Shown here piece after piece: positions 3,307 through 58,294 of a stretch of 64,000 nucleotides of DNA. The notes beneath the pieces were generated by a model. That model was not told where the DNA came from. It saw nothing but the letters and a program-made list of their open reading frames with translations, and ran no database searches. Position numbers and translations under genes: made by a program. The stretch covers positions 186,079 through 250,078 of the forward strand of contig JBMNNE010000001.1 of NCBI GenBank assembly GCA_050953805.1, written 5' to 3'. The DNA comes from Acholeplasmataceae bacterium. Lineage in GTDB: Bacteria; Bacillota_I; Bacilli_A; Acholeplasmatales; Acholeplasmataceae. Within the stretch, counting starts at the first letter, position 1. The number at the start of each line of letters is the position of its first letter.

Positions 3307-5013
3307 TTATTTCTTATCTTTTGTCAAACTAAGAGATATTACAACTGCTTCATATGGTCTTAAACTAATAGATTTAGGCGAAATATGTGAATCTTTATAA
3401 TTTGAAAAAATAATTTTAATAGGTTTCATTCCTTCTAGTTTAGAAAATAAAAAGCGTCGATTTTTATCACTAAAAGAGTTAATCACTAAAATAATCTCGT
3501 TGTTAAGCTTCCTTAGATAGGCAAAAATAAAGGGATTATTAAAATCAATAATCTCAAAATCTCCGTAAATTAGAGTTTCTCGATATTTACTATTTAATTT
3601 TAAATCAATGATTTTTTTATAGTGATTTAAAATAGAGTTGGTATCAGCAATTTGATTTTCAACATTTATGTCTTGATAATTAGGGTGAACCTTAATCCAA
3701 GGAACTCCGGTAGTAAATCCGGCATTTTTAGATGCATTCCACTGCATTGGAATTCTTGAGTGATCTCGCGAATGACCTTTATGGCGATTAACTGCCTCAT
3801 CTACTGTTAAATTTGGATTATTTTTTAAATCAAGTTTAATATGATTAATCGTTGATACGTCTCTAAATTCATCTAATTTTTTAAATGGATAATTAGTCAT
3901 GCCGATTTCTTCACCTTGATAAATAAATGGTGTTCCTTTAATAAAATATAATGTGTTAGCTAACATTTTAGCTGATTTTTCAAAGTAGTTTAAATCCCCG
4001 TACATACTCATAACTCGTGGGTGATCATGATTTAACCAATAAAGTGGATTCCATCCTTTTCCTCTAAATCCATCTTGCCACTTTTTAAAAACTGACTTTA
4101 ATTTAACAACATCAGTTTTTTCAACACCATTAACATTTTTAGTACACCAATTATGATCAAAATTAAAAACCATATTTAATTGGCCATATTCGTTAGAAGC
4201 ATATCTTAATCCCGATTCAACTGACGCTCCCCCACCCACTTCACCAATAGTAACAATATCATATTTAGAAAAAACTTTATCTTTTAAAATTTGCAAATAA
4301 TCATGAACTTTTGGTAAATTGGAATATTTAGAAAAATCAGGGACATAGCGATCATTTGTCATATGAGAATCTTCAAATGGAGCTCTAGCTAAATGACTTG
4401 CAGCATCAATCCTAAATCCTGAAATGCCTAGATCTAACCACCAAGTTGCCATTTTTACCATCTCTTGTTGGACTTTTTCAGATTTCCAATTTAAATCTGG
4501 CATTTTATTACTAAAAATTTTCATAAAATAATAACCAGTTATTTCATCTTTTTGCCAACAACTGCCACCAAAAAAAGAAGACCAATTAGTTGGTTCATAT
4601 TCTATTCCATCAATATAACGTGGCGGTTCCCAAATATAATATTCCCGATATGGATTATTTAATGATTTTCTTGATTCTTGAAACCAATAGTGTTCATCAG
4701 AAGTGTGATTTAAAATTAAATCAACAATAACTCGAATCTTTAATTGTTTCGCTTTATCTAAAACTTTTTTAAAAGTCTCAATAGTTCCATATTCACTTGC
4801 AACTTCATAAAAATCACTAACATCATACCCATTATCATCCATTGGTGATTTATAAAATGGCACTAGCCATATTAAATTAACTCCTAAGTAATGTAAATAA
4901 TCTAATTTTTGATAGACTCCTTCTAAATCACCAATGCCATCACCATTAGTATCAAAAAAACTTTTTATATAGATTTGATATCCAAATGATTCCATCCACC
5001 ATTTTTTCTTCAT
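3307..5013 (-). CDS. malL: cytoplasmic oligo-1,6-glucosidase / alpha-glucosidase (GH13, subfamily 31-like)
   Basis: 568 aa, no signal peptide. GH13 regions DLILNHTS, GFRIDAASH, IGEVGG, WLNHDHPR. N-terminus WWxxxxxYQIYxxSFxDxNGDGIGD is typical of oligo-1,6-glucosidases. Confidence 0.85.
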   Translation of the reverse strand: MKKKWWMESFGYQIYIKSFFDTNGDGIGDLEGVYQKLDYLHYLGVNLIWLVPFYKSPMDDNGYDVSDFYEVASEYGTIETFKKVLDKAKQLKIRVIVDLILNHTSDEHYWFQESRKSLNNPYREYYIWEPPRYIDGIEYEPTNWSSFFGGSCWQKDEITGYYFMKIFSNKMPDLNWKSEKVQQEMVKMATWWLDLGISGFRIDAASHLARAPFEDSHMTNDRYVPDFSKYSNLPKVHDYLQILKDKVFSKYDIVTIGEVGGGASVESGLRYASNEYGQLNMVFNFDHNWCTKNVNGVEKTDVVKLKSVFKKWQDGFRGKGWNPLYWLNHDHPRVMSMYGDLNYFEKSAKMLANTLYFIKGTPFIYQGEEIGMTNYPFKKLDEFRDVSTINHIKLDLKNNPNLTVDEAVNRHKGHSRDHSRIPMQWNASKNAGFTTGVPWIKVHPNYQDINVENQIADTNSILNHYKKIIDLKLNSKYRETLIYGDFEIIDFNNPFIFAYLRKLNNEIILVINSFSDKNRRFLFSKLEGMKPIKIIFSNYKDSHISPKSISLRPYEAVVISLSLTKDKK

Positions 5014-39994: not shown

Positions 39995-40021
39995 AAAAAA
40001 GCTTGCAAGTTATGCAAGCTT
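39995..40021 (-). terminator. intrinsic terminator after the 690-aa beta-propeller gene
   Basis: AAGCTTGCA-agtta-TGCAAGCTT with a T6 run on the minus strand. Confidence 0.8.
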
Positions 40022-40048
40022 CTTAAATGTTATTATTAGAAAGGAAAA

Positions 40049-42121
40049 TTACTGATTATCAATTGGATCTTGTTCAAATTTTAGCGGTTCTAGTAATTCT
40101 TTTTTAACTAAATTCCAAACAATATCTTCTTTCGGTGATAAAATGTGAACCACTTCATTAACTAATAGAATTTTTTCTGATCCAACAAATTTTTCATTAA
40201 ATAGGGATTCCTCAAGAACAAGTGGCTCTTCCAAACTAAAATCAACTTTAAACATTAACATTCTAGCTACACCGCGCCAATCATAGATGGTATATCTTTC
40301 GTCTGGTGAAATTTGAACTGTTTGATAATGATTCATAATGAAGCCAAACATTCCTAATTTTTTATTCATTAATAAATGTTCTCTTGGATTCCATAACGCT
40401 TCAGCCCATATGTATCCACCAAAATCTTCATATCTAAATTCAATAGTTTGAGTTGGTTCTTCGTCCCCAGTTCGATAAGCTGAGATTTTAATTCCCACTT
40501 GGCGATTGTTTTCAACCATATAGCCAAGTCCAATAGTGTTATTTTGTTCATCCCAAACAAATAAGACATTAGAAAATCCTGGTTCTTCAATCGCACTAAT
40601 AATTTTTGGATTTTTTGGATCGGTTAAATCGATAGTATATAACGGATCAGTTTGATAGAAAGTTACAATTTTAACAATATTTCCACTAAAAGTAACGCTC
40701 TTAACATCTTCATTTTCTTTACCTAAACCTTCAGTTAAATGAGATAGTAATTCTAAATTATCACTTTCAGCCCTAGTTTTTAAGATATAAAGGTGATTCG
40801 TTCTCCCTTTACCATAAGTTGTAACAACCCGAATCATACCTTCATGAACATCAAGGAAATATTGGTCACGTACATAACCTTCAACTTCTTGAGAACCGAC
40901 ATATTCTAGATTACCTTTTTCATCATATTTAACTGCTACAATTGATGAAGTATTGTAATATCCAATATCATCATTATAACCTCTCCATTTATCGTTAACT
41001 AAAATAATTAAATCGTTACCCATGTAAACAGTTTGGTTACTACCAACAAAACCAATTTGTCTAACCTTAAGTTCAGGATTAGCTAAATCCACTGAATGAA
41101 TTCTTGAAATTCGAGTTGAATTAATTTCACCTTTGAAATAATAAAATCTTCCAAAGTCAATTGGCATTGATGATGGAATTATTTTATTATCTTCATCAAA
41201 TGAAATATACTCATTAGTAAAAACATACAATATATTATCAACTAATCTTGAATCAATAATATAACCATCTACTTTTTGAGATTTAATAGGTGCAAAGGTT
41301 TCGGTATCAATAATATAATAGACTGATTCTGAACGGTAGTAATAATATTGAGACGCACTATATCGTCCATATAAACCAGTATCATAATAAGGTTCGCGAT
41401 ACATTTTATAACCAAAAACAACGAGCATATTTTCATATAAGACCATGTCAGAAAAAGTAAAATCGTCAATAATTACAGTTTCTGATTCCCCTTGATGATT
41501 ACCTGATTCATCCAATTTTACTTTGAAGATTCGATCACTATTACGTGGACCATAAAAAAAGTATTTACCACTACTGTGAATCTTAGCAATATCAGTTTCC
41601 AAGACTCCTTCAACTTGATTATAAGTATCGGATTGAGTACCACCTTTGGCTGCTGATTCAACATAAGACCCAGACCCTGAATAACTAACGTCATCCCCGT
41701 CAGTACCAATAAATGATGGTGGTGGCAGTACATTATCAAAAGTATTATATCGATACCCTTGATTATTATTGTTGTTTGAAATAATACTTAATTTTTCTTC
41801 AAAATCTTTAGAACTAGAAAAGGCATTGGCATTTTCCAAAGTCATACCAGTTGTTTCATTAATAGTTTTTCTAATTTTAAATGAGACTGGGTTACCTGCT
41901 TTTTCAAGACTAGTTCCACCTACTATTGTTAATGCTCCGACAACAAGTAATAATGTTAACGAAACAACATTTGACCTTAAAGCCGAAATGTTTAATTTAG
42001 ATCTTTCAATTCCACTTTTCTTTTGATAATTATGTAAGCGAATATTCCAAATTAAACGAACTAACATGATTGCAAATACAATGAAGGTAATTACTCCAGT
42101 AGTAATATAAAATCCTAACAT
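40049..42121 (-). CDS. membrane-anchored beta-propeller domain protein (PF09826/COG4880-like), paralogue 2
   Basis: 690 aa. N-terminal TM-loop-TM module, then NQVEGVLETDIAKIHSSGKYFFY and VTFYQTDPLYTIDLTDPKNPKIISAIEEPGFS. These match the family signatures TNxQxxGVDExDIVKTDG and VTFxQxDPLxxIDLSDPxNPK as I recall them. Confidence 0.7.
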   Translation of the reverse strand: MLGFYITTGVITFIVFAIMLVRLIWNIRLHNYQKKSGIERSKLNISALRSNVVSLTLLLVVGALTIVGGTSLEKAGNPVSFKIRKTINETTGMTLENANAFSSSKDFEEKLSIISNNNNNQGYRYNTFDNVLPPPSFIGTDGDDVSYSGSGSYVESAAKGGTQSDTYNQVEGVLETDIAKIHSSGKYFFYGPRNSDRIFKVKLDESGNHQGESETVIIDDFTFSDMVLYENMLVVFGYKMYREPYYDTGLYGRYSASQYYYYRSESVYYIIDTETFAPIKSQKVDGYIIDSRLVDNILYVFTNEYISFDEDNKIIPSSMPIDFGRFYYFKGEINSTRISRIHSVDLANPELKVRQIGFVGSNQTVYMGNDLIILVNDKWRGYNDDIGYYNTSSIVAVKYDEKGNLEYVGSQEVEGYVRDQYFLDVHEGMIRVVTTYGKGRTNHLYILKTRAESDNLELLSHLTEGLGKENEDVKSVTFSGNIVKIVTFYQTDPLYTIDLTDPKNPKIISAIEEPGFSNVLFVWDEQNNTIGLGYMVENNRQVGIKISAYRTGDEEPTQTIEFRYEDFGGYIWAEALWNPREHLLMNKKLGMFGFIMNHYQTVQISPDERYTIYDWRGVARMLMFKVDFSLEEPLVLEESLFNEKFVGSEKILLVNEVVHILSPKEDIVWNLVKKELLEPLKFEQDPIDNQ

Positions 42122-42239
42122 TTTTATTCCCTCCTTTACGGGATGCTTCTAATTTTTTAGAGGCACTTATAAAATGATAATTCATTTTCTATCCGCTTTT
42201 ATTATATAAAAATCCTATTTTAGACCGTTAGCTTTTCTC

Positions 42240-42269
42240 GCAACTTACATTTTTTAAGACACAAGTTAC
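42240..42269 (-). promoter_or_regulatory. LytTR-type direct-repeat box B (9 bp - N12 - 9 bp) upstream of paralogue 2
   Basis: + strand CAACTTACA-ttttttaagaca-CAAGTTACA. TATAAT (minus strand, 42205-42200) lies exactly 34 nt from the proximal repeat. Confidence 0.6.
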
Positions 42270-42277
42270 AGTTTTAT

Positions 42278-42317
42278 TAAAAAAACACTTCCGGATTAAA
42301 TTTTAAATCGGGAAGTG
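42278..42317 (-). terminator. intrinsic terminator after the 658-aa beta-propeller gene
   Basis: ACACTTCCGGATT / AATCGGGAAGTGT stem (one mismatch) followed by T7 on the minus strand. Confidence 0.75.
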
Positions 42318-42333
42318 TTTTCAATTTAATTTT

Positions 42334-44310
42334 TTATGGAATATCACTAGCTTCTTTTTTAACTAAGTCAATTGTCTGATTAAACTGTTTTAAATTGATA
42401 TTCCATGTAATCGTTTTTTCTCTAAAAATAATGTGTAACTGATTATTAATTAATAATAATTTTAGCGGATTAGTTTCAGTAAATCTTAATTGTGGTGGAT
42501 AATCAATTTCTTTGATTGGATTATCTAAATTAAAATCAACTTGATATAATAAAACTCTTGAATATTTACCACTAAACTTAGTTCCATCTTGAATAAAAGT
42601 TTCATCAAATCTTTTCATAATAAATCCAAAAACTCCAGCTTCGCGATCAATTAATAAATACATGTTTGGATAAGTCAAAATTTCACCATATAAAAATCCA
42701 ACTTGATAAAAATCATAAATAATCGTTTGAATTGGGATATAATTTCCATCTTGATAGACATTAATTACTAAAGCTTCCTGCGCTCCCGTTTCTTGATAAC
42801 GACGACCAATACCAATTGAATATTCATTATTCCACGGAATTAAAACATCAATTAAAATCATATCATCACTTATATCAATAATTTTCGGTTTTTTTGAATT
42901 ACTTAGATCAATCGTAATAATTGATTTAGTATTTATTTTGACGATATCTTCATGAAAATGAACTTTTTCAATTCTTTGACTAAGATCTTGATTAAAATAA
43001 GAAACTAATTTAAATTCATCACTATCAGGTTGAATTTTAAAAATATATAATGAATTGTTTTGTTTGTTTGGTGCCGCTACTGTCACCACTCTAATTTCAT
43101 CTTGATAGTAATCAATAAAATATTCACTAGGAACATATCCTAATACTTCATAAGAACCAACATATTGAAGGTTAGCTTCTTGATCATAATTAACTCCAAT
43201 GATCGTTGAACGATAGCCTCCGGTTGTGCCTGATGAATCCCAACGTGACATCGTTATTAAAATTAAACCGTCCTTCATATAAACAGCCTTACCTAATCCC
43301 AAAAATCCTATTGTCTTTGATTCAAGGTTATGAGAACTGAGATCAAAAGCATCAATTCTTGTAATCGCTCGCTCATTAGACGTGCTATTTAAATAATAGA
43401 CATTTTCAAAATCCGTTTCAAAATTAACTAAACTTCGATTAGAAGGAATTGAGCGATTACTAATTATATACAAAGTTTTATTATCAACTCTAGCACTAAG
43501 AAAATTATTTGTAAAATCAATATATTTAATAACTTCCAAAGTATTAGCATTCAAAAAATACATCCTTTGTGGAAATGGATTATATGGTCGTTCCCCTTCT
43601 TTTGGTTCATAACCAGGAATTATTTTATTACTTGGCTGAAATCCAATTACCGCTAAAATATCATCAACTAATAACAGTTGAGTAATATAAAATTGGTCGT
43701 CAAGTTGATTAATACCACAAATTGCAGTATGATTACCACTTGAATCAAGACCAATTTTATAGACAAGATTAGAATTTATTGGTGAATATAAATAGAAATT
43801 ACCAGAAGAATGAATTTGAACAATCTCACGATCATCAATTAAGACCGTCGGTTGACCAACTCCAATCACGCCATCGCCAATTTGATAACCCCCTTCACCT
43901 CTTTCATTTGGAGCGTTACCTTTAGCAAAACTATCAGGACTATCTGGAAGTGGACTTGGTAAACTTTCTTCTTCAATAAAAGTAATTATTTCTTCAACTT
44001 CTTTCATATCAGAAAAAAGTTTGGCATTTCGATAAACGACCCCATCTTTTTCATATGGTTTAAAAGTAAATAAGACACTCGGTTTTTGATTAACTGAGTT
44101 AATTCCCCCTAAAACTGATAAAATCCCAACTACAACTAAGAGAGACATTAAAACAAGATTCGATCTAAAAGCATGAATATTTAACTTAGAACGTTCAACC
44201 CCGCTCTTCTTTTGGTATTGTCTTAGTCGTAAATTCCATATTATTCTAATTACTAAAAAAGTGATTAACACGATTGTTAATACACCAACAGTAATGTAAA
44301 AAGCTAACAT
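42334..44310 (-). CDS. membrane-anchored beta-propeller domain protein (PF09826/COG4880-like), paralogue 1
   Basis: 658 aa. The N-terminal 70 aa are very similar to paralogue 2 (MLAFYITVGV..IWNLRLRQYQKKSGVERSKLNIHAFRSN). The rest is colinear but diverged. The start lies 1 nt after the LytTR gene stop. Confidence 0.65.
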   Translation of the reverse strand: MLAFYITVGVLTIVLITFLVIRIIWNLRLRQYQKKSGVERSKLNIHAFRSNLVLMSLLVVVGILSVLGGINSVNQKPSVLFTFKPYEKDGVVYRNAKLFSDMKEVEEIITFIEEESLPSPLPDSPDSFAKGNAPNERGEGGYQIGDGVIGVGQPTVLIDDREIVQIHSSGNFYLYSPINSNLVYKIGLDSSGNHTAICGINQLDDQFYITQLLLVDDILAVIGFQPSNKIIPGYEPKEGERPYNPFPQRMYFLNANTLEVIKYIDFTNNFLSARVDNKTLYIISNRSIPSNRSLVNFETDFENVYYLNSTSNERAITRIDAFDLSSHNLESKTIGFLGLGKAVYMKDGLILITMSRWDSSGTTGGYRSTIIGVNYDQEANLQYVGSYEVLGYVPSEYFIDYYQDEIRVVTVAAPNKQNNSLYIFKIQPDSDEFKLVSYFNQDLSQRIEKVHFHEDIVKINTKSIITIDLSNSKKPKIIDISDDMILIDVLIPWNNEYSIGIGRRYQETGAQEALVINVYQDGNYIPIQTIIYDFYQVGFLYGEILTYPNMYLLIDREAGVFGFIMKRFDETFIQDGTKFSGKYSRVLLYQVDFNLDNPIKEIDYPPQLRFTETNPLKLLLINNQLHIIFREKTITWNINLKQFNQTIDLVKKEASDIP

Positions 44311-44311
44311 T

Positions 44312-44824
44312 TTAGATTCCCCCTTTTTCTTTTAGAGCCCGTCTAAAAGGTTTTAAGTAGGAACGATTAACTTCTAATTTAATTCCACCAGGTAAACTCA
44401 GTTCAAGTTTTGAATTAAGTAACGGCTTAATATATTGAATCTTATCAAGATTAACAATATATGATTTAGAAATTCGGACGAATTTCAAATCAACTAACAT
44501 TTCTTCTAACTCAGCTAATGAATGTTTTAAAAAGATCGTCTTATAATAACTATTCATTAAGACAACTTCGTGTCCTAATGCTTCAAAATAAAGGCAGTTA
44601 GACGGATAAACTTTAAACCGATGGTCAATTGCTTCAAGCCAAAACTCGTTTTCTTGATCAATGATTTCGTTTAAAACTCTAAAAAAAGAGGCCTCATGTT
44701 TATTAGGTACTTGAAAGATGACATCGTTTGTCAAAACGACTGTTTCAAGTTCGATATTTGCATCTTCTTTAAGTAGTTTGATTAATTTTTCAGCTCTTTC
44801 TAAGCTTAAAACTAGTTTAATCAT
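44312..44824 (-). CDS. stand-alone LytTR-domain DNA-binding protein (no receiver domain)
   Basis: The C-terminal ~100 aa carry LytTR signatures (..CLYFEALGHEVVL..FVRISKSYIVNLDKIQYI..L.L..G..L.VNRSY). The N-terminal ~65 aa are unassigned. ATG 44824 is preferred because RBS AAGGTGGA sits 7 nt upstream; the ORF track starts at 44842. Confidence 0.75.
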   Translation of the reverse strand: MIKLVLSLERAEKLIKLLKEDANIELETVVLTNDVIFQVPNKHEASFFRVLNEIIDQENEFWLEAIDHRFKVYPSNCLYFEALGHEVVLMNSYYKTIFLKHSLAELEEMLVDLKFVRISKSYIVNLDKIQYIKPLLNSKLELSLPGGIKLEVNRSYLKPFRRALKEKGGI

Positions 44825-44879
44825 GTTCCTGTCCACCTTCATTATAATAAAATATTAAACTATAATTTTTATTTATTTA

Positions 44880-44909
44880 TAAGTTACACTAAATTAACCG
44901 TAACTTACA
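44880..44909 (-). promoter_or_regulatory. LytTR-type direct-repeat box A (9 bp - N12 - 9 bp) upstream of the LytTR gene
   Basis: + strand TAAGTTACA-ctaaattaaccg-TAACTTACA. TATAAT (minus strand, 44846-44841) lies 33 nt from the proximal repeat. Confidence 0.6.
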
Positions 44910-45061
44910 ACACCCTTCTGTATAAATAAGTTTATCATATTATTTAATTATTCTCTATCCCTTGCTAAACTAAAATAAAATAATTTGATAACATAATTTA
45001 CTATAAAAATTCAATTATCATCAAATTTATTATATGATAATACCAACAGGAGGGATTGTAC

Positions 45062-45820
45062 ATGTTTCAAGTTTTAACATTCGCTGAACAAATTATTCCA
45101 TCAAGAAGTATTAATCATTTATATATTTATTTAGATATCGTTTTTTTAGTAGTGCTATTATCCTTATTTGTAGTTACTAGAAGATATTTAACTTTACTTT
45201 TTAGTCTATTAGGTGGAATTATATATTTTATTGCTGATTATGGATTTTTCTATTTATTATTTGAAGAACGCATCGTAACTGGGGCTAACCCTTTTTGGTT
45301 TTTACTCTGGCTATCAATGAGTTATGGTATTACTAATTTCGCTTTTATTTGGCTTGCCTTAAAAAAAGATAAAAACTTAATTGAGTTTGCCTCATTTATT
45401 TTCTTGTGGTGGATTGCCTGTCCTCTAATTTCAGGAAATACTCCAGGAGCTGCTGGTAATATTGAAATTAGTCGAACTACTAGTTATCACGGAGGAATGG
45501 CAATTATGTTAATAGTTGGTTATTTAATTGTGATTATCCTTAATTTAACCAAGTATAAAGATAATAAGTTGCCACTTACTAGAATGTTAATTATTGGTGT
45601 TGTTGTCCAGTTCGGATGGGAGTTTGCCTTATATGTATCCGGAATTAGACCACATAATGATAATAGTCTTCAAACATTACTTTTAAACTCCTTAGTTGAG
45701 ACTAATTTGGGCATCCCCTATATCTTTTTTATCCAAATGTTTATTCAAAAATATTTTACCGAGGATTTAAAACGAAAAACGCCCCATAAAGACATTAATC
45801 TTGAATTAGAAACAACATGA
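45062..45820 (+). CDS. polytopic membrane protein of unknown function (about 7 TM)
   Basis: Hydrophobic 252-aa ORF. RBS AGGAGGG sits 8 nt upstream of ATG 45062; the ORF-track start 45056 is a TTG inside the spacer. Divergent from the LytTR gene. Confidence 0.6.
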   Translation: MFQVLTFAEQIIPSRSINHLYIYLDIVFLVVLLSLFVVTRRYLTLLFSLLGGIIYFIADYGFFYLLFEERIVTGANPFWFLLWLSMSYGITNFAFIWLALKKDKNLIEFASFIFLWWIACPLISGNTPGAAGNIEISRTTSYHGGMAIMLIVGYLIVIILNLTKYKDNKLPLTRMLIIGVVVQFGWEFALYVSGIRPHNDNSLQTLLLNSLVETNLGIPYIFFIQMFIQKYFTEDLKRKTPHKDINLELETT

Positions 45821-45876: not shown

Positions 45877-46917
45877 TTATTGCCAAGCTTTATCTTCTAA
45901 ATATGGATGTTTTTTCTCTAATATATCTTTTGCCAATTTATCCGCATTAGCTTTACCCGGGTTTTCTAGATAAAATGTAACAAAACCAAAAGGAGTAAAA
46001 TCCAAATACCTTAGACTGATTTGATATTGATCAATATCACTTTGATCTAAAATAGTTGTTAAGTCTAAATTTTCGTTAATTACTTCATCAAAGTATTTCC
46101 CCTGAATAATAATTTTAATATGGGTTTGCCCTTTATAGCCAATTGATTTAATCTTGGGGCACTTTTCTAATTTTGTAACTAATTCTTGAAGTTCTGCTTC
46201 ACTTATTTTTTCCTTAAAAACAACATCAACCCCTAAACTCCATTGAAAGGTTGTCACCTTTTTTAAGTTTTTAATTCCTTTGAAATCCTCAATCGTTAAA
46301 TCATTAATATAAAATTCACGAATGTATTCTTCTTTTATACTAAATATAATACTTTCTTGAAGTGAGGAAATTGTCCTAATTATAACTTCAATCTTTTTAA
46401 TATCTTTAATCTCTTCCTTTTTAACTGTAATTATTTCAATCCATCCAGTAAGTGCTGCAAAATGCCCTTCAAAACGATTAATATTTAAAGTTAACGTGTT
46501 TCCTTTTTTAGACAAGGCATAAGCATAATTTTTAGAAACATTAGGTTCAAATTTATAATAAAAAATTAAAATATGATCTTCAAAAAAAGCATCATTATAA
46601 TTTTCAATAATCGTGTTAAATTGTTGATCATCTGGGTAATTATATGTATAAAGATTAGGTTTTTTATTTTGATTAATTTTTTCTTTTAATTCTTCGTGGG
46701 TATATGCATAGAAAAAGACATATCCGCTTTCTTCAGTTTGGTAAACATCAAATGCTTCAAGTTGATCATCTTTTAATAAATAATTTTTGCCGCCATCACG
46801 TGAAAAAGGAACTAGTTCACTATTGTCAAAATTAAGTTGATAATTTTTTTCAGTAGTTTTGCATCCAACTATTGAAAGAAGCAATATAGCGATTAAGAAA
46901 ACCAACACTCTTCTCAT
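45877..46917 (-). CDS. lipoprotein of unknown function
   Basis: Start at ATG 46917 (MRRVLVFLIAILLLSIVGCKTT, lipobox) with RBS AGGGGTGA 5 nt upstream. I recognised no family. Confidence 0.6.
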   Translation of the reverse strand: MRRVLVFLIAILLLSIVGCKTTEKNYQLNFDNSELVPFSRDGGKNYLLKDDQLEAFDVYQTEESGYVFFYAYTHEELKEKINQNKKPNLYTYNYPDDQQFNTIIENYNDAFFEDHILIFYYKFEPNVSKNYAYALSKKGNTLTLNINRFEGHFAALTGWIEIITVKKEEIKDIKKIEVIIRTISSLQESIIFSIKEEYIREFYINDLTIEDFKGIKNLKKVTTFQWSLGVDVVFKEKISEAELQELVTKLEKCPKIKSIGYKGQTHIKIIIQGKYFDEVINENLDLTTILDQSDIDQYQISLRYLDFTPFGFVTFYLENPGKANADKLAKDILEKKHPYLEDKAWQ

Positions 46918-46970: not shown

Positions 46971-46999
46971 ATTATAGAAAAGATATATTAATTTGTCCA
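46971..46999 (-). promoter_or_regulatory. sigma-70-type promoter of the lipoprotein gene
   Basis: Minus strand TGGACA (46999-46994), 17 nt spacer, TATAAT (46976-46971). It lies 11 nt downstream of box C. Confidence 0.55.
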
Positions 47000-47010
47000 C
47001 TTTTACTTCA

Positions 47011-47040
47011 TAACTTACATTAATTTAGGGATAAATTACA
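47011..47040 (-). promoter_or_regulatory. LytTR-type direct-repeat box C (9 bp - N12 - 9 bp) upstream of the lipoprotein gene
   Basis: + strand TAACTTACA-ttaatttaggga-TAAATTACA. The proximal repeat is exactly 34 nt from the TATAAT at 46976-46971. Confidence 0.6.
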
Positions 47041-53500: not shown

Positions 53501-53959
53501 TTATCCTCGTTCTTTATAGGCTTTCAAATCCTCATTCATTCTTTCAACTTCTTTTTTCCATATCAAATACATAATTGCCCAAATCAATGCATACACAACA
53601 ATAACAATTAAGGCAATCGCTAAACAACTAACAATATTAAATGGGACCCATCGAAGCACGGTAAAGACAATTATAAATCCAATTAAGATTGATACTGAAT
53701 GGGCGATTGTCGCCTTTAATAAACTCCAAGAATCAATATCATAAAAACTAACACCACCAAAACATACTGAACCAAGTAATCCTGATAGTATTGTCTGTAG
53801 AATGATGGCTAGTGTGTATCCCATAGCCTCTACTTGGTGTTCAGATACGATTCTAGCCCCTTCGCCATAACCTAGATTAACTAATAAAGTAATGAGGTTC
53901 CCCATAATCGCACCAACAAGAAAACCGACAATAATTCTAATAATTAATTTTCTTTTCAT
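53501..53959 (-). CDS. small 4-TM membrane protein, DUF3021-like partner of a LytTR regulator
   Basis: 152 aa with four predicted TM helices and a charged C-terminal tail. A 4-nt overlap with the upstream LytTR gene. This pairing is typical of LytTR plus DUF3021 modules in Firmicutes (recalled). Confidence 0.5.
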   Translation of the reverse strand: MKRKLIIRIIVGFLVGAIMGNLITLLVNLGYGEGARIVSEHQVEAMGYTLAIILQTILSGLLGSVCFGGVSFYDIDSWSLLKATIAHSVSILIGFIIVFTVLRWVPFNIVSCLAIALIVIVVYALIWAIMYLIWKKEVERMNEDLKAYKERG

Positions 53960-54408
53960 TTTGCAGGCTTACCTCCTCTTAAAATTTCTCTAATTTGTTT
54001 CGTATACCTCCTTGAAGTATACGACTTAATTCCATGAATCATTTCAATTTTAATGATTCCTCCACCTTCAAAACTCCATTTTTTTACATACTTAAGATTG
54101 ACAATCTCTGATTGTGATATCTTAACAAACCAAGTCGGATTAAGTTTGGTTTCAATCTGATATAAAGGTTCACTTAAAACATATTCTCCATTAATCGTTT
54201 TAACAGAAATAAATCTTCCACTTTTAGACAAAATGATAATATCATTAGTATCAATTAATTGCTCATCTGAAAGAAGCTGACAAGAAAGTTTCTCGCCGCC
54301 TAAAAGTTCAAGTATCTTATTGACTTCTTCGGTTTGAGCTTTAGCCTTAATGATAACCTCAGTTTCACTGACGCTATCATCATGGATAAACTTTAATTTA
54401 AATGACAT
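53956..54408 (-). CDS. stand-alone LytTR-domain DNA-binding protein
   Basis: 150 aa. The C-terminal LytTR signature is ..WFVKISQSEIVNLKYVKKW..GG.I.I....G.K.YTSRRY. No receiver domain. Confidence 0.7.
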   Translation of the reverse strand: MSFKLKFIHDDSVSETEVIIKAKAQTEEVNKILELLGGEKLSCQLLSDEQLIDTNDIIILSKSGRFISVKTINGEYVLSEPLYQIETKLNPTWFVKISQSEIVNLKYVKKWSFEGGGIIKIEMIHGIKSYTSRRYTKQIREILRGGKPAK

Positions 54409-54699: not shown

Positions 54700-55596
54700 T
54701 TAAATTTTGGATTGATTTCTCCCGTTTTGTTTTGCATAATACATATTTTCGTCTGCTCTTGATATAGCTGTCTTAATAGTATCAATTTTGGTAACAAGAG
54801 TACCTCCGATAGAAATTGTAACTTGTACCGTTCTTTCTTCATCTAGTTGATAACTAGAAGCGGCAACTAATAATCGCAATCTTTCAGCTATCTTTAATAA
54901 TTCATCTTTATTTGAGACATCAAGAATTGCAATAAACTCTTCTCCACCCCAACGACTGACTAAATCTGTTTTTTTAATATTTGATGTTAGTGTATGAGCC
55001 ACAATTTTTAAGATTTCATCTCCTACTAAGTGTCCGTAGGTATCATTGACTTTTTTAAAGTAATCGATATCCATCATTAAAATACCAAATGTATTAGAAA
55101 ACAATTTTGTCTCTTCTAATCTTTTAGCAATTTCAAAATCAAAGAAATTGCGGTTTGCTACTTGTGTTAACGGGTCAATTCGAAGTTTATCTTTTAATTC
55201 GATATTTTCATGATAAATCTGTCTTTGAAATCTTTCATCGGTAAAAACTTCAATAGCTGCGACTATATTTTGTTCTGAATCATAAATCGGTAATGTTTTA
55301 ACTGTAATTGGTATTCGATAACCATCTTTGTGTTTCAAAAACACGTGAGCTTCTCTAATGATACCGTCTTGTAAGGTCTCATTAAGAGGACATCCTTCAA
55401 GACAGAGTTGTTTTCCGTTATGGTCTACGTGTTGTAAAATATTTTGGTAACAAAAGCTGTTAACTACTTCTTCTTTAGAATATCCGGTAATGCGTTCGCT
55501 ACCTTCGTTCCAAAAAATTATTTTTCTGTTTTTGTCTACGACATATACCCCTTCATAAAGATGAGGAATAAGGTTATCATTGTATTTTATCTTCAT
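54700..55596 (-). CDS. PAS-GGDEF diguanylate cyclase
   Basis: 298 aa. N-terminal PAS (VVDKNRKIIFWNEGSERITGYSKEEV) and a GGDEF domain with an intact GGEEF site (SRWGGEEFIAIL). Confidence 0.85.
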   Translation of the reverse strand: MKIKYNDNLIPHLYEGVYVVDKNRKIIFWNEGSERITGYSKEEVVNSFCYQNILQHVDHNGKQLCLEGCPLNETLQDGIIREAHVFLKHKDGYRIPITVKTLPIYDSEQNIVAAIEVFTDERFQRQIYHENIELKDKLRIDPLTQVANRNFFDFEIAKRLEETKLFSNTFGILMMDIDYFKKVNDTYGHLVGDEILKIVAHTLTSNIKKTDLVSRWGGEEFIAILDVSNKDELLKIAERLRLLVAASSYQLDEERTVQVTISIGGTLVTKIDTIKTAISRADENMYYAKQNGRNQSKI

Positions 55597-55624
55597 AATT
55601 TGTTCTCCTATTTTTTATTTTAAA

Positions 55625-58294
55625 TTATTCATTAACTATAACTTCATTAATAAATACATTAACTAATTTTGAATCAAATTGTGTTCCTGCACAACGTTTT
55701 AGTTCTTCAATGGCCACTTCTTTAGTAAATGCTTTTCGATAAGATCGATCTGATGTCATAGCTTCGTAAGCATCACAAATACTAATAATACGTGAAAATA
55801 ATGGGATTTCATCACCTTTTAACCCTTGCGGATAACCTTTGCCATCGATACGTTCATGATGGGTTAGGGCATATTCCGCAAGTTTTGAATATTTATCTGC
55901 CGAACGTAAAATTTGATAGCCATTAGTCGTGTGGGCTTTCATAATTTCCCATTCGTCTTCAGTCAGTTTACCTGGTTTATTTAAAATATGGTCAGGAATC
56001 GTGATTTTACCGATATCATGCATCCGACCTGCAAATTCCAACTCTAATCTTTCATTTTCTGAAAGATTTAATTTTTCACCCATCATAGCACAATACCGAC
56101 TGACGCGATCAGAGTGTTTTCTTTCTTCATCATGTTTTTCTTTTAATGAATTAAAGATAGCACTAATAGCTTGATTTCTAGAACTTTGGCTACGAAGTAC
56201 TTTATTTGAATACATATGGTTTTCAGCTTCAGTAATGACATCATCAATCCGCATTGATTGATCGTTTTTGACCGCAGTTCCAAATGAAAGTGAAAGCTGA
56301 ATCTCTTTAATCTTAATTTGAGATATCTTAGTGATTAAATCATCTAATTTAGGCTTATATGTTTCAAGAGTGGCTTTTGGTGATAAGATTAAAAACTCAT
56401 CTCCTCCAATTCTTGAAACAATTGTAGGTTCTAAACAAAATTTTGTCAGCATATCGGCAACTTTCTTGATAGCCTGATCACCCACAAAGTGTCCGTAGGT
56501 ATCATTAATTAACTTTAATCCATCAATATCCATCATCGTGATTACTAGTGGATAGTTTTTGGGATTATCAAGTTCTTTAAGTTTGTCATCAAAATAACGT
56601 CGATTTGGTAATCCAGTTAATGAATCATGATTACTGGCATAAATTACTTTTTCTTCGATTTGTTTTTCAACGGTAATATCCATTAAAAAGCCTTCAATAA
56701 GCCATTCTCCATTTCGAATAAATGTTTTCCCCTTTTCCCAAATCCAAGCTGTCGTTCCATCTTTTTTGATAATTTCATACTCAACATTATTTGTTTGATC
56801 ATGTTTTTTTGATTCTAACCAGCTTTTCATTAAATAATCCTTATATTTAGGAATAATTAAATCATTAAATGACAACTTTTTATTGTTTATGAAATCTATA
56901 GGTTGATATCCAGTAAGTTTTTCACATTGCTCAGACATATATAACATCGTCCAATTGGAATCAAGCTTGCATTGAAAATAAACTCCGGGGAGACTATCGA
57001 TAATTCTACCTTTTTCACTTTCCTTTTCTATTAGAACTTTTTCCTGAAATTTTCTATCAGTAATATCTTCAGCAATAACAATGAACTTATCATCTATATA
57101 TGGATAGGAAACTACCCTAAAATATTTTTTTAATCCCCTTGAATAATCATCAATGGCCATAGTTTCTTTTTTTAACACGACTTCGCCGTATTTTTCAATC
57201 CATGATGGCTCAATTTCAGGAATAATTTCGGTTGCTAGTTTACCTATAATATCTTCTTTTTTTAACCCAGTCATCGTTTGATAAGCGTCATTAATATCTA
57301 GAAAGCGGTAATTAATAGGGTTCCCTTTTTCATCCCAAACCATTTCTCTTAAATTAAAGCCAAGCGGCATCTCGTGGATTAACCGGTCCCATTGCATTCC
57401 CATTCTAATGCTTTCTGCCTCAACTTTTTTGATTTCAGTAATATCTCTAAATTCGGTAATCATTACTTGTTTACCTCGATATGGAGTACTTTTGGATTCA
57501 ATTATTAACGGATAAATCTCTCCGTTTTTTCTGATACCTTTGGTTTCATATGGTAATTCATAACCTGATTTAATATAATTTGTCACATAATCTCTTGTTT
57601 CTGCTGCAATTAATAAAGGCCCTTTCATTCCAACCAACTCTTCATAATCATATCCGGTGATTGCTAGTAATCGTTTATTACAATCTAAAACGATACCTTG
57701 ATCGTGAATCACAACTCCTCCAAATGAGATGTCTTGTAAAGCTTTAAACCTTTCGCTTTCTTTCAAACTCTTATTCTTCTGACTAATCACTATTAATCCT
57801 GCCGAAGTAATTAACGCTACCGCAATCAGTAAGAGAATAATAATTAAGGTTAGATTATTTTGACGGTCTTCTAATAAGATAAATTCTGTTTGATCGATAA
57901 CAATTGAAAAAAGGTACGTTTCTCCATTAATATCCATCGGATACGAATAAACATGTACCGTTTTAATTTCGCCATTAGCTAAACGATGTTTAAAAATAAA
58001 GAATTCGCGTTCTTCTTTTAATGCTCGAAGCCTTTCATCAGCTACCTCTTTAGGTGATAATGTATTAATATCGTTGATATTCATCTCAATTAAGGTTTCT
58101 AATGGATAACCATAAAATTCTGCTGCAGCTGCGTTTGCATAGTAAATATCACCCGTTATCGGATGAATGATGAGCATGATACTTTGATGATTATCAAACA
58201 GTTCTTTAAAATCAACTTCATCAGCAGCATAAACAGTCAAGGGTGCAGTAAACATAGTCACAAAAATAATCAATAAAATCAGGACTTTTTTCAT
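55625..58294 (-). CDS. membrane sensor protein: extracytoplasmic PAS-like domain, TM, three PAS domains, GGDEF, HD-GYP
   Basis: 889 aa. Signal/TM, then a second TM around residue 150. RIGGDEFLIL (intact GGDEF). The C-terminus MHDIGKI...HHERIDGKGYPQGL is an HD-GYP c-di-GMP phosphodiesterase signature. Confidence 0.85.
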   Translation of the reverse strand: MKKVLILLIIFVTMFTAPLTVYAADEVDFKELFDNHQSIMLIIHPITGDIYYANAAAAEFYGYPLETLIEMNINDINTLSPKEVADERLRALKEEREFFIFKHRLANGEIKTVHVYSYPMDINGETYLFSIVIDQTEFILLEDRQNNLTLIIILLLIAVALITSAGLIVISQKNKSLKESERFKALQDISFGGVVIHDQGIVLDCNKRLLAITGYDYEELVGMKGPLLIAAETRDYVTNYIKSGYELPYETKGIRKNGEIYPLIIESKSTPYRGKQVMITEFRDITEIKKVEAESIRMGMQWDRLIHEMPLGFNLREMVWDEKGNPINYRFLDINDAYQTMTGLKKEDIIGKLATEIIPEIEPSWIEKYGEVVLKKETMAIDDYSRGLKKYFRVVSYPYIDDKFIVIAEDITDRKFQEKVLIEKESEKGRIIDSLPGVYFQCKLDSNWTMLYMSEQCEKLTGYQPIDFINNKKLSFNDLIIPKYKDYLMKSWLESKKHDQTNNVEYEIIKKDGTTAWIWEKGKTFIRNGEWLIEGFLMDITVEKQIEEKVIYASNHDSLTGLPNRRYFDDKLKELDNPKNYPLVITMMDIDGLKLINDTYGHFVGDQAIKKVADMLTKFCLEPTIVSRIGGDEFLILSPKATLETYKPKLDDLITKISQIKIKEIQLSLSFGTAVKNDQSMRIDDVITEAENHMYSNKVLRSQSSRNQAISAIFNSLKEKHDEERKHSDRVSRYCAMMGEKLNLSENERLELEFAGRMHDIGKITIPDHILNKPGKLTEDEWEIMKAHTTNGYQILRSADKYSKLAEYALTHHERIDGKGYPQGLKGDEIPLFSRIISICDAYEAMTSDRSYRKAFTKEVAIEELKRCAGTQFDSKLVNVFINEVIVNE

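Follow-up and report, generated by a model that had tools for sequence, protein, structure and literature searches.

When the gene of a small transcription factor ends one nucleotide before that of a large surface protein, is the second product a target of the first, its partner or only its neighbour? The question is raised by a stretch of 64,000 nucleotides (the window) from an Acholeplasmataceae bacterium (contig JBMNNE010000001.1, positions 186,079 to 250,078 of the forward strand). There, a LytTR regulator devoid of a receiver domain, here called R, is encoded directly before a membrane-anchored beta-propeller protein, A658, and upstream of its tandem paralogue, B690. In the reading favoured here, which we hold to be the probable one, the locus is a LytTR regulatory system (LRS) in which the propeller proteins sequester R by means of a cytoplasmic hairpin and release it upon an event at their ectodomain, whereupon R activates its own operon, B690 and a lipoprotein gene. 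The core of the locus is laid out as follows.

44312..44824, minus strand: R, a receiver-less LytTR regulator of 170 residues.
42334..44310, minus strand: A658, a two-pass membrane protein of 658 residues with a divergent PF09826 propeller, cotranscribed with R.
42275..42332, minus strand: intrinsic terminator 3' of A658 (folding energy dG -19 kcal/mol, z -6.75), with a U run after it.
40049..42121, minus strand: B690, a two-pass membrane protein of 690 residues with a canonical PF09826 propeller, paralogue of A658.
39995..40022, minus strand: intrinsic terminator 3' of B690 (dG -15.7 kcal/mol, z -5.4), with a U run after it.

R closes with its stop codon at 44312 and A658 opens with an ATG at 44310, which leaves an intergenic gap of 1 nucleotide (nt). 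Open reading frames (ORFs) and Pfam thus agree with the original prediction of a receiver-less LytTR gene located 1 nt before a 658-residue gene. The strong hairpins and U runs behind A658 and B690 indicate two transcription units; the terminator and the 690-residue paralogue with its own promoter, both claimed earlier, are borne out by the hairpin with its U run and by a box-bearing promoter upstream of B690. No histidine kinase, receiver or ABC exporter was found among the ORFs scanned between 31.7 and 58.3 kb of the window, as had been stated for kinases and exporters close by. An Agr/Com-type quorum circuit was ruled out, the locus being without receiver domain, kinase, peptide precursor and exporter.

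The longest ORF of R (44312..44842) corresponds to 176 residues, and its likely true start is the ATG at 44824, giving 170 residues, because the alternative ATG, at 44842, shares bases with the -10 box and because homologues of 170-173 residues have the same N-terminus. LytTR (PF04397, E 6e-19, residues 76-170 of the 176-residue ORF) is the sole Pfam match in R and in all 34 orthologous regulators. Neither a receiver domain (Response_reg) nor sigma domains are detected in R by Pfam, and in NCBIfam the additional matches are weak and confined to the LytTR portion of LytR and BtsR. The AlphaFold model (pLDDT 89) predicts a beta-alpha-beta-beta-alpha domain (1-60) followed by the LytTR domain (61-166), which superposes on 3d6w / the B. 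cereus LytTR structure, AgrA and ComE (TM score 0.82 relative to the target). The N-terminal domain, of about 60 residues, is without an invariant aspartate in the homologue alignment and is thus not a receiver; the fold search gave it no significant match, merely weak ACT-like ones (E about 0.1). Homologues of R are few, 22 among 5.8 billion proteins, and every one with a contig examined has a propeller gene next downstream.

A match of the two large proteins to the beta-propeller family had been set beforehand as a check. Both exceed the curated gathering cut-off of PF09826 (Beta_propel; COG4880-type), which is 22.4 bits, with 66.5 bits (E 2.8e-18) for A658 and 229.8 bits (E 8.5e-68) for B690. 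The family signatures announced for the pair are therefore only partly retained, as both proteins match PF09826 but the two quoted signature strings are present in B690 only and have been lost from A658. The model of B690 (pLDDT 80) comprises a helical hairpin (2-35/42-73), a small domain (78-120), a disordered segment (122-161) and the propeller (165-680); used in a fold search, it is an all-beta propeller that returns only propellers, generic ones with TM scores of at most 0.5.

Among residues 22-50 of B690, which form the loop, seven are basic and one is acidic. The positive-inside rule predicts this loop to be cytoplasmic, as the original prediction had it, and to be the sole cytoplasmic part of the protein. 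The topology suggested by the sequences of A658 and B690 thus consists of a very short outer N-terminus, a basic helical hairpin of 28 residues inside and about 600 residues outside, this ectodomain being mostly a PF09826 beta-propeller of approximately 520 residues. Directly after the first transmembrane helix, the hairpin carries the motif W-N-x-(R/K)-L-x-x-(F/Y)-Q-K. Over 30 non-identical pairs of regulator and propeller protein, its positions are kept in 24/30 (W25), 27/30 (N26), 29/30 (R/K28), 30/30 (L29) and 27/30 (F/Y32), and N26 and L29 (B690 numbering) are the only residues outside the propeller that are invariant across 19 diverse hairpin-type propellers.

Identity between A658 and B690 reaches 75% in the loop and 58.6% over the whole N-terminal module, against 30.4% in the propeller and 19% in the linker. 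The claim of a far better conserved N-terminal module consequently holds between these two paralogues but not among B690 orthologues, where the module is about on a par with the propeller and the loop alone rises above them, as the most conserved segment in close relatives. Pfam finds nothing at or near threshold in the N-terminal modules, and no similarity to DUF3021 or DUF2154. A profile of the module (72 positions) retrieved one same-family fragment from 5.8 billion proteins, such a short hydrophobic profile having too little power.

Both transcription units start from promoters of one design, which occurs a third time in the window.

44880..44909, minus strand: operator of the R-A658 operon, TGTAAGTTA (44909-44901), 12 base pairs (bp), TGTAACTTA (44888-44880).
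42241..42270, minus strand: operator of the B690 promoter, TGTAACTTG, 12 bp, TGTAAGTTG.
46971..47040, minus strand: third promoter, TGTAATTTA (47040-47032), 12 bp, TGTAAGTTA (47019-47011), with one mismatch to the box pattern.
45877..46917, minus strand: candidate regulon member downstream of the third promoter, a lipoprotein of 346 residues (MRRVLVFLIAILLLSIVGC...).

The repeats are followed, in the R-A658 promoter, by 10-11 bp, a weak A-rich -35 box, 16-17 bp and TATAAT (44846-44841); in the B690 promoter, by 10-11 bp, a weak -35 box, 17-18 bp and TATAAT (42206-42201); and in the third, by 11 bp, TGGACA (46999-46994), 17 bp and TATAAT (46976-46971). The layout common to them is repeat, 12 bp, repeat, 10-11 bp, -35 box, 16-18 bp and -10 box. 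The box consensus is TGYAWSTTA with a period of 20-21 bp, the type in the window being TGTAAsTTA-12-TGTAAsTTA, and the exact pattern TGTAASTT-N13-TGTAASTT is found in the 64 kb only in the R-A658 and B690 operators, with 0 expected. In 33/33 non-identical pairs, the orthologous promoter has TGYA-type direct repeats 57-98 nt before the LytTR start, their period being 20 or 21 bp. This arrangement suggests that R binds the 9-bp repeats and would activate three promoters, those of its own operon, of B690 and of the lipoprotein gene.

The third promoter is the best formed of the three. The lipoprotein itself has no Pfam or NCBIfam match and no homologue in the fetched loci. A multi-pass membrane protein of 254 residues, with no family match, is encoded divergently from the R operon (45056-45820, plus strand), and the two have in common a 213-bp intergenic region that carries the boxes; this gene is not conserved beside the system in other genomes.

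A regulator that merely switches on surface proteins could have promoters of this kind. In this alternative, which appears unlikely but is the strongest of those weighed here, R is autonomous and may sense a cytoplasmic ligand, the propellers and the lipoprotein being its targets; cotranscription would then be the mark of a regulon rather than of a signalling pair. It is favoured by the separate promoters of B690 and of the lipoprotein gene, which bear the same boxes as ordinary targets would, and by the N-terminal domain of R, folded in the model and with ACT-like matches at E about 0.1. The evidence that speaks on the other side comes from known systems of this build and from the anchors of the propellers.

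The LRS of Streptococcus mutans (HdrRM, BrsRM and three others; PMC6193735) likewise have a soluble receiver-less LytTR gene right before a membrane protein gene, without kinase or peptide signal. Their hallmark is 9-bp repeats usually 12 bp apart and most often 10 bp upstream of -35 (Zou 2018, PMC6193735); the criterion applied here was direct repeats of about 9 bp, 11-13 bp apart and 4-11 bp upstream of the operon -35 box. All the LRS characters that can be tested on a sequence are present at the locus, namely a receiver-less LytTR protein, a membrane gene directly downstream and the repeat layout, which, with 9-bp repeats 12 bp apart and about 10 bp before -35, implies autoactivation as in those systems. 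The choice of HdrRM and BrsRM as nearest precedent is supported by the regulator, by the adjacent membrane gene and by the direct repeats of the operon promoter.

The partner and the operator set the locus apart. Known LRS partners are small, carry DUF3021, DUF2154 or no recognised domain and have no described sensory ectodomain, whereas the LytTR-linked partners found here have 620-820 residues, an outer PF09826 propeller and only the 28-residue hairpin in the cytoplasm. The operator is TGTAAsTTA instead of the ACCrCTTAt of LRS (PMC6193735). A658 and B690 fall outside the five described S. mutans LRS subtypes, whose membrane proteins are HdrM, BrsM, SMU_295, SMU_434 and SMU_1069c, as Pfam finds only PF09826 in them, and the locus is, in our estimate, rather likely to be an LRS of a previously undescribed type.

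AgrA, ComE and PlnC share with R the LytTR fold and with its promoters the paired 9-bp direct repeats, 12-bp spaced, next to -35, but R has neither receiver nor conserved aspartate, and the neighbours scanned include no kinase, peptide precursor or exporter. DanRI of uropathogenic E. coli (bioRxiv 10.1101/2025.06.10.658900) resembles the locus in its LytTR-like regulator antagonised by the product of a neighbouring gene; it differs in that DanI, a zinc-finger protein, has neither propeller nor membrane hairpin, and in that no autoregulation is reported. In every LRS tested, as in DanRI, the product of the adjacent gene inhibits the regulator (PMC6193735; bioRxiv 10.1101/2025.06.10.658900), and this precedent stands against a propeller that is only a target.

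The LytTR-propeller adjacency, whose recurrence elsewhere had been named as a check, is found in at least 33 non-identical pairs and in at least five genomic contexts. The gap between regulator and propeller gene ranges from -32 to 157 nt (33 pairs), and two hydrophobic helices are predicted in the partners across the pairs. Regulator identity across pairs goes down to 25-35% and protein identities down to 14-30%, the pair still being kept. Its hosts are Acholeplasmataceae, Mariniplasma, Acholeplasma sp., Peloplasma aerotolerans M4Ah, Tenericutes bacterium MO-XQ and related metagenome-assembled genomes (MAGs), to which the Izemoplasma-like loci L006-L011 can be added. The flanking genes vary as follows.

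Window, L001 and L016: Na/Pi transporter and V-ATPase.
L003: sugar ABC transporter cluster.
L006-L011: maf to malic enzyme and fumarase.
L012: peptidase S8 gene upstream, DUF2779 gene downstream.
L013: acetyltransferase and phosphatase.

A species-level survey, with one genome per species and a propeller alignment as query, was restricted to the best 80 of 297 relatives, and the loci were scored by our own ORF and hidden Markov model scan. Two hydrophobic helices together with the juxtamembrane WNx(R/K)L motif are present at 30 loci, 29 of which have a LytTR gene directly upstream, the remaining one lying at a contig edge and not being assessable. At the 50 loci with any other N-terminus, LytTR is directly upstream in none and a sigma factor gene of the extracytoplasmic function (ECF) class in four. 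The association between N-terminal module and LytTR has a Fisher p of 2e-19, which overstates the independence of the loci as they represent one broad lineage.

It could be argued that the adjacency means nothing and is a lineage-specific accident of gene order, all positive loci coming from one broad group of wall-less Bacilli. We regard this as very improbable. Indeed, the pair outlasts a complete change of flanking genes over at least five contexts and a fall of identity to 14-30%, with short or overlapping gaps and conserved operator repeats. The argument for a functional pairing rests on this persistence through deep divergence and changing neighbourhoods.

Some loci depart from the common build. 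P0033, P0035 and P0036 are LytTR-linked propellers of 807-820 residues with an extra C-terminal domain of about 140 residues that belongs to no known family, and at such loci (L013 5001-7424, L020 744-3206) the LytTR-propeller gap is 116-127 nt instead of about 1 nt. A kinship between this extra domain and the 346-residue lipoprotein was considered and rejected (BLASTP E 0.15-0.22, not significant). At L030 (about 3600-3950), the LytTR gene before an intact hairpin-type propeller is split into two ORFs of 111 and 78 residues, which may be a frameshift or a pseudogene in the MAG.

Outside the hairpin group, PF09826 proteins have other anchors. Clostridial ones have a cytoplasmic N-terminus of 40-70 residues and a single helix, with no hairpin, and in the two Clostridial loci L014 and L015 the propeller gene directly follows, or overlaps, an ECF sigma gene; the sigma genes of the Clostridial relatives encode Sigma70_r2 and r4. 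The four surveyed ECF sigma genes upstream of a propeller are those of L052, L056, L093 and L094, and at L060 a sigma ORF lies downstream, the sigma domains being confirmed by Pfam at all five. The anchor thus predicts the type of adjacent regulator, a two-helix hairpin going with LytTR and a cytoplasmic N-terminal segment with one transmembrane helix going with an ECF sigma factor.

Such a rule is expected if the anchor contacts the regulator and is not expected if the propeller is a mere regulated surface protein. The reading of the propellers as plain targets of R finds support in the many other PF09826 proteins that are plain lipoproteins or secreted, with no adjacent regulator, but it fails to explain why the membrane anchor switches along with the regulator type, why the sole cytoplasmic segment holds invariant residues and why A658 keeps its hairpin while its propeller degenerates.

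The parallel with ECF sigma/anti-sigma pairs, whether Clostridial PF09826 pairs or Tt-RpoE1/Tt-TolB, includes a regulator gene that precedes or overlaps the membrane gene, a short cytoplasmic N-terminus, a large propeller and an autoregulated operon, and the PF09826 ectodomain is homologous in the Clostridial and LytTR settings. Tt-TolB of Thermoanaerobacter tengcongensis has 645 residues, of which 39 are cytoplasmic, one transmembrane helix and a TolB-like ectodomain of about 580 residues, and it binds and inhibits its ECF sigma factor, Tt-RpoE1, via the short N-terminus (PMC3397946). As the TolB annotation of this protein (TTE0322) suggests PD40 repeats, it serves as an analogy only and not as a PF09826 member. 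The two settings differ in that a sigma factor faces an N-terminal cytoplasmic domain with one helix there, whereas a LytTR factor faces a two-helix hairpin here; R is not itself an ECF sigma factor with regions 2 and 4, Pfam finding no sigma domains in it. PF09826 is possibly, with somewhat less than even confidence, a general extracytoplasmic sensor module plugged into ECF sigma systems in Clostridia and other lineages and into LytTR systems in wall-less Bacilli.

A third arrangement linking PF09826 to ECF sigma is seen at L059 (5836-6372), L060 (5760-6290) and L065 (5466-5999), in some Bacilli and Bacteroidales-labelled MAGs, where an ECF sigma gene comes after a PF09826 gene of the lipoprotein type. 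In L094 (2240-2932, an Acidimicrobiia MAG), the upstream ORF joins sigma-70 regions 2 and 4 with a terminal zf-HC2 anti-sigma motif. The fused ORF may be an assembly frameshift, and the motif gives a hint of a classical anti-sigma domain in some PF09826 proteins.

Under the LRS reading, R would bind the two 9-bp direct repeats 10-11 bp before weak -35 boxes and activate R-A658, B690 and the lipoprotein gene. The cytoplasmic hairpin would keep R inactive at the membrane, as HdrM and BrsM do with HdrR and BrsR, and anti-sigma factors with ECF sigma factors; the contact between R and hairpin and its inhibitory sign are proposed by analogy with LRS and anti-sigma factors. Something that happens to the propeller, such as contact with a ligand or a surface, damage or proteolysis, would then free R, which would boost its own synthesis in a positive feedback while also raising that of its inhibitors, thereby allowing a reset. 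In a wall-less Acholeplasmataceae cell, the propeller ectodomain would directly face the medium. The partial correlation between the N-terminal domain of R and the loop is 0.44, against 0.19 and 0.11 for control pairings, a co-variation that gives weak support to the partnership; distances of regulators and partners correlate as well (r 0.72-0.90).

The partnership could also have the opposite sign, the propeller protein being needed to activate R, either by recruiting it to the membrane for modification or through an activating fragment released by proteolysis. The same co-occurrence and hairpin conservation would be expected, and the sign of an interaction is not readable from sequence. We consider this version improbable, as an autoactivated operon encoding a co-activator would be without a reset, which an inhibitor provides, and as no protease or modifying enzyme is conserved nearby in the loci compared.

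Several points weigh against the sequestration of R by the hairpin and its release at the surface. Just 28 cytoplasmic residues would be available for touching R, in a contact proposed by analogy. The hairpin would most plausibly dock on the N-terminal domain of R, but this domain might bind a cytoplasmic ligand instead and receive its signal without a membrane partner. The mirror-tree correlation is expected for any two co-inherited genes, and the 29 positive loci form one related group, so that the association could stem from a single inherited ancestral event. The -35 boxes of the box promoters are weak. In the clade of R (44822-44846; also L001, L003 and L016), just 14-17 nt separate the -10 box from the regulator start codon, and the R mRNA is predicted to have a leader of some 10 nt in which a Shine-Dalgarno sequence is slight or absent; in more distant relatives, leaders are long and include a strong AGGAGG. 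The propeller has no solved or characterised relative pointing to a ligand, its alignment profile giving no significant match among PDB sequences and the fold search only generic propellers. Finally, no anti-sigma domain reaches the Pfam threshold in the N-termini of ECF-linked propellers (DUF4179, DUF5345 and DUF3379 are sub-threshold), and their anti-sigma role thus rests on gene order and topology.

The history of the tandem paralogue can be traced in the window and in two related loci. In the closest relative, L016, the regulator is 84% identical to R and a single propeller, P0024 (53% identical to B690), stands after LytTR and before the Na/Pi transporter; L001 also has a single propeller directly after LytTR. 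B690 shares 41-54% identity with P0024-P0032, the propellers encoded after LytTR in L016 and L001, and is, by its sequence, the canonical orthologue of the LytTR-linked propeller of related genomes. A base-for-base alignment is obtained between its promoter and that of the LytTR operon in L016, the second repeat, the -10 box and the region of the regulator start codon being included. Between this promoter and the B690 start lies a trace of a second regulator gene.

42122..42185, minus strand: remnant of a second LytTR gene, 64 nt, recognised when aligned to the R genes and promoters of L016 and of the window.

The remnant keeps the ancestral start (GCGGATAGAAAATG) and 3' end (GCCTCTAAAA..AAAGGAGGGAATAAAAATG), about 450 nt between them being deleted, and is out of frame with B690. 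Together with the promoter match, it points, as the simplest reading, to an operon that was duplicated in tandem as a whole and later lost the downstream regulator copy by an internal deletion. A658 has kept the N-terminal module while losing the PF09826 hallmark motifs, and it has no full-length relative above 37% identity among 1.84 billion representatives (a 109-residue self fragment aside). It seems to be selected mainly for its regulator-facing end and may be a brake with altered or lost sensing, B690 remaining the sensor.

The combination of a LytTR regulator with a propeller partner had been thought undescribed, and full-text literature searches (LRS names, PF09826/COG4880, LytTR with propeller) found no paper linking the two. 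The published LRS survey accepted only membrane proteins with DUF3021 or DUF2154 or with homology to SMU_295 (PMC6193735) and could therefore not have found the propeller type. Further LRS varieties were predicted by Zou et al. (PMC6193735), and later LRS-related papers report other partners, such as that of DanRI (bioRxiv 10.1101/2025.06.10.658900).

LRS are widespread, with more than 4600 operons reported, and as to natural signals the cited LRS papers go no further than a link to cell density and purines. No evident sensing domain is offered by the inhibitors described so far, and an inhibitor with an outer propeller of roughly 520 residues would be a concrete object of ligand and structure work. 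If PF09826 is indeed a general sensor module of both kinds of system, this would be the first LRS with an identifiable sensory ectodomain, and in the 28-residue WNx(R/K)L hairpin one would have a new, minimal motif capturing LytTR proteins. PF09826 would likewise be the first domain common to LRS inhibitors and anti-sigma factors, in contradiction to the earlier view that they have none, and its presence on anti-sigma-like proteins as well suggests that the two kinds of inhibitors are alike modular and able to swap sensor domains. The family would also gain its first functional context, since the Pfam entry mentions only a beta-propeller domain and the literature searches found no functional study of PF09826. 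The system occurs in the cultured Peloplasma aerotolerans M4Ah and Tenericutes bacterium MO-XQ and is small enough for rebuilding in a model host.

A second LRS is found elsewhere in the window.

53956..54408, minus strand: second LytTR protein, 150 residues, overlapping the DUF3021 gene by 4 nt.
53501..53959, minus strand: DUF3021 membrane protein, 152 residues.
54512-54444, minus strand: promoter of this system, TGCCGAATA-12-ACCGATTAT-10-TTGACT-17-TATAAT.

Its repeats are similar to the published consensus, ACCrCTTAt, and unlike the TGTAAsTTA boxes of the propeller system. The organism thus has one textbook LRS in addition to the propeller-linked system, of the same build but with a different operator. 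This canonical LRS is adjoined, at 54700-58294 on the minus strand, by two cyclic di-GMP proteins, PAS-GGDEF (298 residues) and PAS-PAS-GGDEF-HD (889 residues).

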